From: Aquificaceae bacterium
Lineage (GTDB): Bacteria; Aquificota; Aquificia; Aquificales; Aquificaceae
DNA: 24,000 nt
Direction of reading: 5' to 3'
NCBI GenBank assembly: GCA_027079305.1
Contig: JALWVU010000030.1
Span: 23,922-47,921 of the forward strand
In this document: positions 19,822-24,000 of the stretch, in pieces
Position numbering within the stretch: position 1 is the first letter of the stretch
Layout: each line of letters opens with the position of its first letter
Notes under the pieces: model-generated
Databases searched by the model: none
Seen by the model: the letters and a program-made list of their open reading frames with translations, nothing else
Told to the model about the DNA's origin: nothing
Made by a program: the position numbers and the translations under genes

Positions 19822-20724
19822 ATGGAAACCCTCGTAGGAAAGGCTAAGGTCCTGCATGAGGCCCTCCCCTACATAAGGGAGTTCCACGGAAAGGTATTCG
19901 TTATCAAATACGGCGGTTCCGCCATGACCAGGGAGGAGCTCAGGGAGTCCTTTGCCAAGGATGTGGTCCTTCTCAAATACGTGGGCATAAACGTTGTCAT
20001 AGTCCACGGGGGAGGTCCCCAGATAAGCACCACCCTAGAAAGATTCGGGATAAAGCCCAGATTCGTCGGAGGTATGAGGAAGACCGATGAGGAAACTATG
20101 CACGTGGTAGAGATGGTCCTCTCCGGAGACGTGAACAAGGACATCGTAGCCCTTATAAACAGGCACAGCGGTGAGAAGGTCTACGCGGTGGGTATCTCGG
20201 GTAGGGACGGCAGGCTCCTACGAGCTGTGAAGCTCAATAAGGAAAGATACTTCAGAGAGATAGGTCTACCGCCTCCCAGCGAGGACGTAGGCTACGTGGG
20301 GGAGATCGTGGGCGTGAACGTAGATCTTATAAACTCTCTCATAGAAAGAAACTTTATTCCCGTGATAGCTCCCGTGGGTGTGGGAGAGCAGGGGGAAGCC
20401 TACAACATCAACGCGGACATTGCAGCATCCGAGATAGCAAGGTATATAAAAGCTGAAAAGCTCATCTTCCTGACGGACACCGAGGGAGTTAAGGACGAAA
20501 AGGGAGAGCTTATATCGAGTCTCTCTGAAAGCAAGGCAAGAGAGCTTATAGAGAAGGGCGTAATAAGGGAAGGTATGATTCCCAAAGTAAAATCCGCTCT
20601 GAAGGCTTTGGAGAGTGGTGTCAGGAAGGTTCACATAATAGACGGCAGGATCCAGCACTCGCTCCTGCTGGAGATATTCACTCAGGAGGGTATCGGAACG
20701 GAGATAGTTCACTTGCAGACCTGA
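19822..20724 (+). CDS. argB: N-acetylglutamate kinase (ArgB)
   Basis: LHEALPYIREFHGKVFVIKYGGSAM, VVIVHGGGPQI, NINADIAASEIA, EGMIPKV. The start at ATG 19822 (METLVGK) is preferred over the upstream track start at 19765. Confidence 0.95.
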   Translation: METLVGKAKVLHEALPYIREFHGKVFVIKYGGSAMTREELRESFAKDVVLLKYVGINVVIVHGGGPQISTTLERFGIKPRFVGGMRKTDEETMHVVEMVLSGDVNKDIVALINRHSGEKVYAVGISGRDGRLLRAVKLNKERYFREIGLPPPSEDVGYVGEIVGVNVDLINSLIERNFIPVIAPVGVGEQGEAYNINADIAASEIARYIKAEKLIFLTDTEGVKDEKGELISSLSESKARELIEKGVIREGMIPKVKSALKALESGVRKVHIIDGRIQHSLLLEIFTQEGIGTEIVHLQT

Positions 20725-22118
20725 CATCCCCCGAGGGTGAGCCTTCTGATCCTAACCGTGGGCTGGGCGTCGGTGACGGGAACGCCTTGGCCGTCCTTAC
20801 CGCAGGTTCCTATGGCCCACCCGAGGTCGTTTCCCACCGCGTCTATGTCCTGAAGAGCCTTCGGTCCATTCCCTATCAGCGTGGCACCCCTTATGGGGTA
20901 GGTTATCTCTCCGTTCTCGATCATGTAGCCCTCCATTATCTCGAAGACGAAGTCTCCCGTGACTGTGTTCACCTCTCCACCGCCCATCTTGACCACGTAG
21001 ACACCTTTTTTGGTGTCCCTGAGTATGTCCTCCGGATCGTCCTTTCCCTTGTCTATGTAAGTGTTGGTCATCCTCACTATGGGAACGTGAGCGTAGCTCT
21101 GGCGCCTTCCGTTTCCGGTGGACTCCCTTCCCTCCTTCATAGCCCTGAGCCTGTCATACATGTATCCCACCAGGTATCCGTCTTTTATCAATACTTTCCT
21201 CTGGGCGGGGACGCCCTCGTCGTCCACCGAGAAGGAGCCGTTGTGCTGGGGCAGGGTAGCATCGTCTATAACCGTGACGAGCTCACTCGCCACCTTCTCC
21301 CCGAGCTTACCCGCATAGACCGAAAGCCCCTTCTGGACGAGGTCCGCCTCCAGTCCGTGGCCGACCGCCTCGTGGATCATGGTTCCTCCCGCCTGAGAGG
21401 AGAGGACAACGGTGAAGGTTCCTGCGGGAGCAGGCTTTGCGGTCAGCATGAGGAGGGCCCTCTCCGCCGCCTTCTGGGCCACCGCCTCCGGAGGGGTCTC
21501 TTCAAATATCTCGAAGCCCTTTCTTCCCCCCAGAGACTCGTAACCTCTCTGGAGTATCTCTCCGTCGCTGGCAACCACCTCCACGAAGAAGACCACTCTC
21601 TTCTGGAGATCCTCCGCGGTCTCTCCGAGGGAGTTCACCACCAGTATCTCCCTCGTCTTGTCCATCAGGACAGAAAGAACCTGCTTTACTCTGTCTCCGT
21701 AGCTTCTGGCCTTCTCCTCCGCCCTTTTGAGGATCTCAGCCCTGAACTGGAGGTCCACCGAGTCGGGGTCTATCAGGGTGGGTGTCCATCCCTCTATGGA
21801 CCTCATACCAACCGCCACGGGACCGTAGCCCTCGCCCCTGGCGAGCGTCTTGGCTATCTGGAGCAAGTTCTCAAAGGTAGGTTCGCTCGTGTATCCGTAG
21901 AAGGTCCTGCCTTCCTTTATGAGCCTTATACCGACTCCCTCGTCGTATCCGTGGGATACCCTGCTGAGCTTTCTATCCTCGAGCTCCATCCTCGTGGTTC
22001 TGGAACGCTCATAGAAGATCTCACCATACTCTCCTCCCTGAGAGAGAAGGTTGGAGAGTATTATCCCCGCTTTATCCTTTATCATCTCCTTAACTTCGTT
22101 CAGCCTTGTTTCCACCAT
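20709..22118 (-). CDS. tldD: TldD-family metalloprotease
   Basis: 469 aa with the TldD HExxxH site (HEAVGHGLEAD) and a conserved C-terminal region (GDFVFEI, GATLIGNGPKAL). GGAGG lies upstream of the ATG. The 3' end overlaps argB by 16 nt. Confidence 0.93.
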   Translation of the reverse strand: MVETRLNEVKEMIKDKAGIILSNLLSQGGEYGEIFYERSRTTRMELEDRKLSRVSHGYDEGVGIRLIKEGRTFYGYTSEPTFENLLQIAKTLARGEGYGPVAVGMRSIEGWTPTLIDPDSVDLQFRAEILKRAEEKARSYGDRVKQVLSVLMDKTREILVVNSLGETAEDLQKRVVFFVEVVASDGEILQRGYESLGGRKGFEIFEETPPEAVAQKAAERALLMLTAKPAPAGTFTVVLSSQAGGTMIHEAVGHGLEADLVQKGLSVYAGKLGEKVASELVTVIDDATLPQHNGSFSVDDEGVPAQRKVLIKDGYLVGYMYDRLRAMKEGRESTGNGRRQSYAHVPIVRMTNTYIDKGKDDPEDILRDTKKGVYVVKMGGGEVNTVTGDFVFEIMEGYMIENGEITYPIRGATLIGNGPKALQDIDAVGNDLGWAIGTCGKDGQGVPVTDAQPTVRIRRLTLGGCQVCK

Positions 22119-22129
22119 CCTGAAACCTC

Positions 22130-22393
22130 CTAAAAGTCGAGATCTTCAAAGCTGGACTCTCCGAGAACCTCTAAACCTCTTACGTGCTTCCTGAAACCTT
22201 CTACTATCTCTTTAAGATCCTCAAACCTGTCCGGGGAGGCTATTATATCCACCACACCCTCTCCCTTCTTGCGGGTCCTCGTGAAGGCGACCCTGTCGAG
22301 GCCGTCCACGAGGGAGTTCAGAAAGCCCACCTCCTCCACTGGAACTCTGACGGTCAGTATCCGTGCCCTTATCTCCTTACTTCTTTCTGTCAT
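22130..22393 (-). CDS. Small conserved hypothetical protein (87 aa), DUF4911-like
   Basis: It has its own SD (AAGGTGG, 6 nt before the ATG) and is packed tightly between dnaX and tldD on the same strand. The pattern ILTVRVPVEEVGFLNSLVDGLDRVAFTRT...GVVDIIASPD resembles DUF4911 proteins as I remember them. Not verified. Confidence 0.6.
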   Translation of the reverse strand: MTERSKEIRARILTVRVPVEEVGFLNSLVDGLDRVAFTRTRKKGEGVVDIIASPDRFEDLKEIVEGFRKHVRGLEVLGESSFEDLDF

Positions 22394-22429
22394 ACCTGAC
22401 CACCTTGGCGTTGAAGAGTTCCATGACCT

Positions 22430-23794
22430 TCAAAACAGACTCGTCGTATCCTTTCTCTGGTCTTTTTTTTTCCGAGGCTCGAAAACTATCTGGGGAACTT
22501 GCCTCTTTAGCTTCTCGAATTCCTCTTTAAAGGTTTCGTAGTCCTTCTCCTCTATTTCGAAGATAACCTTACCGTCCTCCTCTCTCCTGCCGGCCCTCTC
22601 TATAGCCTTGTAAGCGAGGGGAGATAGACCTGACCTTATCTTTTCCTCTAAGCTCTCCTCCCTTTTGGGTTCACCGCTTAACTCTTGGGGAACTTTCGTC
22701 AGGGCCTTAGATACGGGAAGGATTTCCTTAACTATCAGGGTTTTGATCACCGCAAGTTCGTAAGCGTCGAGGGCCGGTCTTGTGCGTGCCTCCAGTCTTC
22801 CCCTGTTCACTATATTTTCAAGGTAGAGAAGTGCTTCCAGAGGGTAGTCTCTAAACTCCTCATAGCTCTCCGTGTTCTCTAATACACCTGTGGGATCCTT
22901 GAGACTTTTAAAGAGTAAAGCGTTCCTAACCTCTTCCTCGAGCATATCCCAGAATTTAGAGAGGTTATAGCCCTTGTTGTAAAGGTCTCTGAGCTCCTGG
23001 ATAGCTTCGTCCACCTTGGATTCCAGGAGGAGCTTCATGAATCCACTGACCTTGTCCACACTCAGTATACCCAGGAAGGACTCCACCACCTCTCGGTTTA
23101 CCTTACCCTCTCCGAATACGCTCGCCTGATCGAGCAATGAAGCTGCGTCCCTCATACACCCTTCCGAGGCCCTCGCTATTGCACTGAGGGCTTCCTCCTC
23201 ACACTCTAATTTCTCCTGATCGCAGATCTTCTTCAGGTAAGCCTTTATGTTCTCTTCCCTGACCCTGCCGAAGATTATTCTCTGACAACGGGAGAGGATC
23301 GTGGGAATGATCTTGTCGTATTCGGTCGTGCAGAGGATGAAGACCGTTCGCGGTGGAGGCTCCTCAAGTGTTTTCAAAAGGGCGTTGAAGGCCTCCTTGG
23401 TGAGCATGTGGGCCTCGTCTATTATGTAGACCTTGAAATTTCCCTTTATAGGAGTGTAGGAGACTGCTTCCTTTATGGCCCTGATGTCGTCTATCCCCCT
23501 GTTGGAGGCTGCGTCCATCTCTATAAGATCTGGAAAGTTCCCCCTGTCTATTTCAAGGCAGTTCTCACACTTCCCGCAGGGCTCCCCGTCCTTGGGATTG
23601 ATGCAGTTGAGGGCCTTAGCAAGTATCCTCGCAACGGTAGTTTTACCCACACCCCTCGGGCCTGCGAATATGTAGGCGTGGGCTACTTTCCCCGATCTGA
23701 CCGCGTTCTTGAGTATCCTTACCGGAACCTCCTGACCGATGACCTCCGAGAAGAACCTGGGCCTGTATTTGCGTGCGAAGGGAACGTAGGTCAT
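22430..23794 (-). CDS. dnaX: DNA polymerase III clamp-loader subunit DnaX (gamma/tau), frame-0 product 454 aa
   Basis: ARKYRPRFFSEVIGQE, Walker A GPRGVGKTT, zinc module CGKCENC, DEAHML, SRC motif (TILSRCQ). ATG 23794 is preferred over TTG 23797 because it overlaps the upstream gene's stop (ATGA coupling). See the finding on the A9 tract near the 3' end. Confidence 0.93.
   Translation of the reverse strand: MTYVPFARKYRPRFFSEVIGQEVPVRILKNAVRSGKVAHAYIFAGPRGVGKTTVARILAKALNCINPKDGEPCGKCENCLEIDRGNFPDLIEMDAASNRGIDDIRAIKEAVSYTPIKGNFKVYIIDEAHMLTKEAFNALLKTLEEPPPRTVFILCTTEYDKIIPTILSRCQRIIFGRVREENIKAYLKKICDQEKLECEEEALSAIARASEGCMRDAASLLDQASVFGEGKVNREVVESFLGILSVDKVSGFMKLLLESKVDEAIQELRDLYNKGYNLSKFWDMLEEEVRNALLFKSLKDPTGVLENTESYEEFRDYPLEALLYLENIVNRGRLEARTRPALDAYELAVIKTLIVKEILPVSKALTKVPQELSGEPKREESLEEKIRSGLSPLAYKAIERAGRREEDGKVIFEIEEKDYETFKEEFEKLKRQVPQIVFEPRKKKDQRKDTTSLF
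22463..22471 (-). other. A9 homopolymer (AAA AAA AAA) in dnaX, candidate slippage or -1 frameshift site
   Basis: Nine consecutive T on the + strand, read as Lys-Lys-Lys 11 codons before the frame-0 stop. The -1 frame stays open for 28 codons, to the stop at 22377-22379. Confidence 0.5.
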
Positions 23795-24000
23795 CAATGC
23801 CCTCTTTCCGCGTATTTGCTTATCTGCTCCTCCAGGAATACAAGTATAAGAGGAATCTGCTTCTTTATGTCATCGTCGCTTATGTTTTCCCCTTTAAGCT
23901 CGTCGGTTAGCTCTCCGAGTATCTTAAGCAGGCCGGCGTAGAACTCTTTTGGAGATATCTTTCCCTGTTTCCTTGACTCCTTCAGCTGTTCGAGCTCTTC
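23794..24000 (-). CDS. Hypothetical protein, C-terminal 68 aa only (gene continues beyond the window)
   Basis: My own translation of the minus strand is open from the window edge: EELEQLKESRKQGKISPKEFYAGLLKILGELTDELKGENISDDDIKKQIPLILVFLEEQISKYAERGH*. Its TGA overlaps the dnaX ATG. I recognise no family. Confidence 0.5.
   Translation of the reverse strand, partial: EELEQLKESRKQGKISPKEFYAGLLKILGELTDELKGENISDDDIKKQIPLILVFLEEQISKYAERGH

Follow-up and report, generated by a model that had tools for sequence, protein, structure and literature searches.

A conserved A9 run near the 3′ end of Aquificaceae dnaX as a probable recoding site for a C-terminal tail

The dnaX gene is the textbook case of one gene that supplies two replisome subunits by recoding, and the reason why bacteria keep gamma is debated. 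Here we describe a run of nine adenines (A9) near the end of dnaX in a 24,000-nucleotide stretch of Aquificaceae DNA (contig JALWVU010000030.1, positions 23,922 to 47,921; hereafter the window). The run is proposed to be a conserved programmed recoding site that joins the globular C-terminal domain of DnaX to a flexible end peptide. Template-faithful A9 mRNA, translated in frame 0, would yield a short DnaX of 454 residues that ends 10 residues past a Lys-Lys-Lys (KKK) sequence, and a shift into the -1 frame would yield a long DnaX of 472 residues with the conserved tail ...DESVLKVMELFNAKVV.... The shift would most likely come about when RNA polymerase slips and inserts an extra A (A10 mRNA), in the manner known from the A9 run of Thermus thermophilus dnaX, with -1 ribosomal slippage on A_AAA_AAA or A_AAA_AAG as a possible contributor. 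By analogy with Escherichia coli tau, the long form would be the tau that tethers the polymerase through its alpha subunit, and the short form a gamma-like protomer that fits the clamp loader and has no tight hold on the polymerase. The stage at which slippage takes place (transcription or translation), the ratio of the products and the binding of alpha by the tail are parts of this explanation that we infer. For the reading as a whole, namely programmed recoding at A9 that gives rise to a long tau as well as a short form, probably by transcriptional slippage and with alpha binding assigned by analogy, we estimate a probability of about 0.72.

On the minus strand of the window, the annotated frame-0 open reading frame (ORF) of dnaX spans 22430..23794 (454 residues, ATG at 23794 and TGA at 22432-22430) and is identical to the called protein P0001. 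The encoded protein comprises AAA+ domains I-III, a short linker, a small α/β C-terminal domain, KKK, and the 10-residue out-of-frame sequence DQRKDTTSLF. The A9 run lies at 22463..22471 on the minus strand (T9 on the plus strand) in the register AAA AAA AAA, which is read as KKK. It is the only homopolymer of eight or more nucleotides in the window and is positioned at ~94% of dnaX, with only ~28 residues differing between the two products. Past the run, frame 0 continues as ...EPRKKKDQRKDTTSLF for 10 sense codons up to its TGA, and the third frame provides an unrelated 23-residue extension past the run codons. The -1 frame contains the tail ORF RPEKGYDESVLKVMELFNAKVVRYDRKK (22377..22463, minus strand), which consists of 28 codons and a TAA at 22379-22377. 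Within this tail, the motif ESVLKVMELFNAKVV (22398..22442, minus strand), a candidate peptide for binding the DNA polymerase III (Pol III) alpha subunit, is the most conserved block of the C-terminal half of the protein. The frame-0 stop (22430..22432, minus strand) is made up of the last two bases of a tail Leu codon and the first base of the Lys codon next to it (V-L-K). The next gene, which encodes a DUF4911 protein, starts at 22393, 17 nt ahead of the -1 stop, and thus overlaps the tail. All these features of the first-pass annotation of the window, the A9 run, the early frame-0 stop, the -1 tail that ends at 22377 and the 17-nt overlap, are borne out by the sequence.

That the -1 frame rather than the annotated frame carries the genuine conserved C-terminus of DnaX is supported by a family model, by homologs and by substitution patterns. 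PRK14953, a curated NCBIfam equivalog model of Aquificae DnaX with 488 positions, scored 681.2 bits against the frame-0 protein, with the alignment ending at position 458, and 680.0 bits against the third-frame fusion, with the alignment ending at position 456. Against the -1 fusion the score was 700.5 bits and the alignment reached 482/488; the gain of 19 bits was seen with the -1 tail only. Among the 120 best homolog clusters, 68 contain short-form calls that end in ...KK[KN]x(5-12)LF followed by a stop, like the frame-0 product of the window, and 49 contain proteins of 470-500 residues from Thermocrinis, Hydrogenobacter and relatives, with in-frame ...LPxFxxKVKDLFxAKVIxHE.... The end of these in-frame relatives aligns with the -1 tail of the window and not with its frame-0 tail; over 21-27 Aquificaceae sequences F, A and K show no or almost no variation, and E.VLKV.ELFNAK is invariant in alignment A1. 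A homologous tail is also in frame in P0130 and P0132, and the more distant in-frame P0132 ends in ...KKKSKKRDESVDKVLDLFQGKLISYKEE. As such distant in-frame relatives carry the tail, both the tail and the Lys-rich linker appear to be ancestral.

The tail also bears the mark of coding sequence. Over the tail block (18-19 codons, 16 A9 lineages), the synonymous divergence pS in the -1 frame is 0.66 and the nonsynonymous divergence pN is 0.19, which gives a pN/pS of 0.28; the same nucleotides in the other two frames give ratios of 0.91 and 2.6. Entropy by codon position in the -1 frame is 0.61/0.30/1.08 (3>1>2). Judged by these patterns, purifying selection acts on the tail as read in the -1 frame. 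Together with the in-frame orthologs and the PRK14953 gain, this upholds the assignment of the C-terminal tail to the -1 frame that had been made from the window. An independent small ORF that begins at the tail's Met was considered and rejected; conservation begins upstream of this position, and the Met itself varies (VKELF, VLELF, MIELF). The tail might instead be a decaying remnant left after a fixed frameshift, the frame-0 short protein alone being made and sufficient. Recombinant frame-0 DnaX of Aquifex aeolicus reportedly sustains in vitro replication (work cited by PMC3290774 and PMC4320859), in keeping with such a remnant. However, a pN/pS this low persists with synonymous sites saturated over deep divergence, indels always restore the -1 relation, the motif is invariant and the run is kept against codon usage, which renders decay extremely improbable.

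At least 17 separate Aquificaceae lineages, compared through the DNA of their orthologous loci, have exactly nine A's in the homologous position and the tail in the -1 frame. The A9/-1 loci comprise the window, L001-L007 (L004 being the same as L014, and L007 the same as L017), L010, L011, L015, L016 and L022-L028. Two of them, L010 and L011, are both A. aeolicus VF5, represented by the finished genome AE000657.1 and by an independent read assembly, and L022 is Hydrogenivirga sp. 128-5-R1-1. A scan of metagenomes for the locus gave eight loci, several of them redundant. The scaffold of one metagenome-assembled genome (L025, at about 1990-2010) shows a run of N and a duplicated stretch right after the A-run, and the end of the corresponding protein P0086 is aberrant and looks like an assembly artefact.

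The run occurs in two registers, AAA AAA AAA N (phase 0) and xxA AAA AAA AAN (phase 2), and always has nine A's. The linker from run to tail measures 23, 24, 26 or 27 nt, and the -1 relation is kept in every combination. Lys codons that lie wholly within the run are all AAA, whereas in the remainder of these dnaX genes AAA accounts for 41% of Lys codons (for 30% in the case of the window and 11% in that of Hydrogenivirga); the naive joint probability is ~1e-19 when the lineages are treated as independent, which they are not. No other A-run in these dnaX genes exceeds seven. In 133 kb of Aquificaceae DNA, 27 of the 28 A or T runs of eight or more are the dnaX site, so the run is far from a chance feature. 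From this comparison of sequences, the run is selected at the nucleotide level, beyond protein sequence and codon usage, whatever the register. The first-pass annotation had offered as the trivial alternative that the assembly is one base short in the homopolymer, in which case the genome itself would have A10 and encode one ordinary tau. Homopolymers are indeed error-prone and a few assemblies read A10, but one would have to suppose the mistake in no fewer than 17 lineages and in the 68 short-form clusters, which come from many projects and platforms, a Sanger-finished genome and a second assembly of it from independent reads among them. The alternative is refuted by this recurrence and, since a maintained frame-0 stop makes no sense under it, we regard it as barely credible.

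Maintenance of that stop is evident in the codon choice of the tail. The Leu codon that forms the frame-0 stop is TTA, TTG, CTA or CTG in 17/17 lineages and never CTC or CTT, which make up 55% of the Leu codons elsewhere in these genes (naive P~1e-6). The single lineage with Arg at this position has its stop two codons further on. Without its stop, frame 0 would run into the DUF4911 ORF in many lineages. The maintained frame-0 stop suggests that frame-0 translation is substantial, i.e. that the short form would be expressed as well.

Natural variants invert the relation between run and tail. In A. pyrophilus (L012/L013, probably one dataset; 2844-2856) A9 is kept and one extra T (A9+T) brings the tail in frame. 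The sequence there is AAAAAAAAATTCC, as against AAAAAAAAATCC in the close relative L007, a natural polarity flip within the genus. Two short-form clusters contain long-form members, P0154 and P0165, at >90% identity, and the corresponding DNA has A10 (L031-L034); outside the run these variants are nucleotide-identical to their A9 twins L035-L044. Within the European Nucleotide Archive run series ERR16623xx, from the same strain, dnaX has A9 in seven assemblies and A10 in three (L031-L033). For L034, the run is the sole difference from its A9 twins P0033/P0161. True polymorphism, RNA-derived reads or miscalling of the homopolymer could each account for the A10 calls in ERR16623xx. That the run is retained whichever the polarity agrees with a remark in the review by Atkins et al. 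2016 (PMC5009743).

Such variants raise the question of whether run-length variation at the DNA level (A9<->A10 by replication slippage, as phase variation or polymorphism) supplies the in-frame tau, with no recoding involved. The coexistence in public assemblies of A9 and A10 versions of otherwise identical genes, including 3/10 of the ERR16623xx runs, is what such variation would produce. Yet A9 was assembled in every lineage, with about 55 short against 2 long cluster members and with A9 in the clonal A. aeolicus VF5 and Hydrogenivirga 128-5-R1-1, and the tail is under purifying selection inside the A9 lineages. The dnaX gene is essential in the bacteria in which it has been studied, and an A9 majority without recoding would miss the conserved C-terminus of an essential gene; the A10 calls, moreover, may be errors. 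Variation at the DNA level is thus very unlikely to be the source of the long form.

Recoding at the level of expression could proceed by slippage of RNA polymerase or of the ribosome. We consider it fairly probable that transcriptional slippage is the main route, and both routes could contribute. No conserved hairpin or pseudoknot was found at the site: the RNAalifold consensus has -1.34 kcal/mol and a single compensatory change, and single-sequence RNA z-scores range from -1.4 to +1.1 overall and from +0.5 to +1.1 downstream. Neither was a conserved Shine-Dalgarno (SD)-like element found upstream; for the window, L016 and L004 the best anti-SD duplexes have -2.2, -0.9 and -2.8 kcal/mol, respectively, and where an SD-like element is present its position shifts between -7 and -22, the window itself being counted as without one. 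Transcriptional slippage is favored by this lack of conserved RNA structure or SD-like element, by the conservation of nine A's where seven would do, by the retention of the run in in-frame variants together with the avoidance of such runs elsewhere in the genomes, and by the precedent of the A9 run of T. thermophilus dnaX, on which about 50% of transcripts are slipped (PMC1088944).

Programmed -1 ribosomal frameshifting alone, on A_AAA_AAA or A_AAA_AAG of an mRNA that is A9 throughout, could also give these two products; this would be the mechanism of E. coli dnaX with its polarity reversed. A slippery heptamer X_XXY_YYZ is in the correct frame in both registers, as A_AAA_AAA in the window and as A_AAA_AAG in the phase-2 loci L024 and L028, the latter being the E. 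coli shift site (PMC5009743). In addition, the A9 lineages have only the -1 relation, and a single ubiquitous direction is a criterion by which Antonov et al. favor ribosomal frameshifting (PMC3711429). Against this mechanism stand the features just listed, as neither a conserved downstream stem-loop nor an SD-like stimulator accompanies the heptamer, seven A's would be enough, and the in-frame variants retain the run. The near absence of A/T runs of eight or more elsewhere suggests that the RNA polymerases of these organisms slip on them, and A_AAA_AAA is reported, in the same review (PMC5009743), to be far less shift-prone in E. coli than A_AAA_AAG. Ribosomal frameshifting as the sole mechanism therefore seems unlikely, albeit with some claim to consideration.

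The function proposed for the tail is modeled on E. coli tau, in which globular domain V is followed by an unstructured C-terminal peptide that constitutes the alpha-binding site, the last ~18-26 residues (PMC1888804, PMC4703070). E. coli tau that lacks 18 residues shows no isolable alpha binding, and conservation or importance is ascribed to L627, F631, A633 and L635 (PMC1888804). For the fused Aquificaceae C-terminus, AlphaFold2 models show a small α/β domain with a predicted local distance difference test (pLDDT) score of 83-88 that ends at the run-encoded KKK. Beyond KKK follow a flexible linker and the tail, with a helical segment over ESVLKVMELF for which the confidence is 76 in one model and <50 in the other. 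A Foldseek search of the PDB placed E. coli tau domain V (2AYA) 1st and 2nd of 350,542 chains (E=0.039 and 0.044, template modeling score 0.28-0.38). The resemblance of the modeled domain to the 2AYA fold is suggestive rather than conclusive. The C-terminus of E. coli tau given in the first-pass annotation (...TLRRFFDAELDEESIRPI) was correct as judged by translation of NC_000913.3; this end, ...NNIQTLRRFFDAELDEESIRPI, aligns with VLKVMELFNAKV of the tail on F-[DN]-A. Compared with E. coli IQTLRRFFDAEL (tau I624-L635), VLKVMELFNAKV has identical F and A and hydrophobic residues at 624/627/630/635, a match that carries no statistical support. The E. coli residues L627/F631/A633/L635 lie opposite V/F/A/V of the tail, with 7 residues left to the C-terminus here and 8 in E. 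coli. Of the earlier suggestion that the tail resembles the tau C-terminus, the part that stands is the motif (F, A and the hydrophobic positions); profile comparisons gave nothing, and the structural match to 2AYA has E~0.04. From the architecture, the motif and the extreme conservation, we infer that the tail would bind Pol III alpha, as its E. coli counterpart does.

Several observations weigh against the recoding interpretation or against parts of it. No statistical case can be made for homology between the tail and the alpha-binding peptide of E. coli: an hhalign comparison of the Aquificaceae profile with E. coli tauC16 gave E=0.14 in an irrelevant region, Pfam PF12170 (DNA_pol3_tau_5) matched 0/21 members at E<=10, with no match for the fused protein either, an hmmsearch of the PDB with the C-terminal module gave chance matches only and no solved tau structure, and the Foldseek E-value is only ~0.04. 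The heptamer that is in frame in every register, of the E. coli type A_AAA_AAG in several lineages, leaves room for ribosomal frameshifting, and the A10 variants might be miscalled homopolymers. Both DnaX products are predicted from the sequence. Reviews state that A. aeolicus dnaX gives a single product in recombinant E. coli (PMC3290774), and A. aeolicus is named in reviews and in a 2022 preprint as one of the species in which dnaX produces tau only, or no gamma. A second A. aeolicus form could be masked by the ~2-kDa difference or by a clone that ends at the annotated stop. An exhaustive hidden Markov model search, in which the C-terminal profile was run over 1.84 billion representatives, returned only 17 matches, all Aquificota-like and many of them fragments, with no bridge to other phyla.

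The closest precedent is dnaX of T. thermophilus (Larsen et al. 2000, as described in PMC1088944 and PMC5009743), in which an A9 run late in the ORF of a thermophile likewise leads to two products that differ at the C-terminus, with stops close by in the alternative frames. In Thermus, according to these sources, long tau is read from the template frame and gamma from slipped transcripts, and the run lies ~7/8 through the gene, so that a sizeable C-terminal region is lost. In the Aquificaceae, by contrast, the short form would come from the template frame and the long form would require slippage; the polarity in A. pyrophilus and in the A10 variants is that of Thermus. The reversal of polarity relative to E. 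coli and Thermus had been correctly recognized in the first-pass annotation, which did not take in that two-ORF dnaX genes of reversed polarity were known from other phyla (Antonov et al. 2013). The latter, from Chlorobi, Bacteroidetes and Coraliomargarita (PMC3711429), resemble the Aquificaceae gene in a -1 split at poly-A with recoding to tau, and neither group is annotated as recoded in RefSeq. They differ in that most of them have A10 (some Chlorobi have A7-A9) and in that the genes were recognized as two adjacent ORFs (PMC3711429), whereas the second ORF of the Aquificaceae has 28 codons and forms no substantial adjacent ORF, the globular C-terminal domain being upstream of the run.

E. 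coli dnaX shares with the Aquificaceae site an A-rich heptamer in Lys codons, the -1 direction and tau/gamma-type products from one gene. However, the E. coli shift truncates (gamma lacks domains IV and V), takes place about two-thirds into the gene and relies on two conserved stimulators, neither of which is conserved here. The predicted short form would be the natural equivalent of E. coli tauC14 or tauC16-delta-18 (Jergic et al. 2007, PMC1888804), i.e. domain V without the C-terminal peptide; in E. coli this deletion weakens the dissociation constant from ~260 pM to µM-mM, in an engineered protein and not a natural isoform. Polymerase slippage on a homopolymer also fuses frames into a longer functional protein in Shigella flexneri mxiE and Citrobacter rodentium tssM, according to PMC1088944 and PMC4256274, respectively, but these are different genes and do not offer deep, family-level conservation in an essential replication gene. 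Poly-A-mediated recoding of dnaX is therefore already known; what appears to be new from this sequence comparison is reversed polarity at a site so near the C-terminus that only the putative alpha-binding peptide would switch.

No report of the Aquificaceae site, or of a dnaX split so close to the C-terminus, was found in the literature. Aquifex is not mentioned in the accessible text of the Atkins et al. 2016 review (PMC5009743), and the short proteins carry the plain name 'DNA polymerase III subunit gamma/tau'. The survey of Antonov et al. 2013, which lists 17 genes in 12 genera, scanned 7 Aquificae genomes and names no Aquificae in its text or supplements (PMC3711429). Recoded extensions of fewer than 30 codons, such as this tail, are too short for ab initio frameshift finders. 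Should the recoding reading be correct, at least 68 protein clusters would be truncated calls in the databases, and the true long DnaX of A. aeolicus, a model hyperthermophile, would have about 491 residues rather than 473. The recombinant A. aeolicus 'tau' (473 residues, frame 0), a model thermophilic clamp-loader subunit, may then be the tail-less short form, which could explain why its contact with alpha is reportedly (Bruck et al. 2002) weaker than that in E. coli. The clade would also offer an experiment of nature: with nothing but the extreme C-terminal peptide to tell the two forms apart, polymerase tethering would be isolated from the rest of tau. One may tentatively suppose, at somewhat less than even odds, that slippage tunes the number of clamp-loader protomers that bind polymerase, as a minimal tau/gamma switch operated through a ~28-residue peptide. 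If so, one-base changes (A9<->A10, +T) could flip the polarity freely, as expected with slippage near 50%, and the slippage frequency might depend on temperature and couple replisome stoichiometry to growth temperature.

The DUF4911 gene of the window (22130..22393, minus strand) encodes 87 residues (PF16256, E=4e-8) in the 0 frame of dnaX. A DUF4911 gene follows dnaX in nearly all the Aquificaceae loci examined (for instance L010 2941-3204, L022 2008-2271 and L023 1993-2256), with L024 as the exception, and its overlap with the -1 tail is 17 nt in the window and about 44 nt in A. pyrophilus. This overlap and position suggest translational coupling and perhaps a replisome-related role for DUF4911. 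Beyond it, a 469-residue ORF (20709-22118, minus strand) has counterparts in L022, L025 and L027 that are PmbA/TldD-family proteins; the order dnaX-DUF4911-tldD is common to the window and Hydrogenivirga-like genomes, and Aquifex has uvrB in that place.

On the other side of dnaX, a small ORF (23795-24000, minus strand) that runs off the end of the window overlaps the dnaX start in ATGA fashion, ending in …ERGH. A small ORF with this conserved position upstream of dnaX, elsewhere of 75 residues, occurs in several Aquificaceae, at L013 1274-1501, L024 374-601, L025 374-601 and L027 100-327 and is without Pfam annotation in the contig tables. A small signal recognition particle (SRP) RNA gene (RF00169, 53-56 bits) lies directly upstream of dnaX in A. 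aeolicus (L010 1391-1476) and Hydrogenivirga (L022 510-595). The contig start shared by the ERR16623xx assemblies was considered as a transcription start in RNA-seq data and rejected: it lies inside this conserved SRP RNA gene and is likely a break in the assembly graph, and eight independent Logan contigs break at one same base within the conserved SRP RNA motif.

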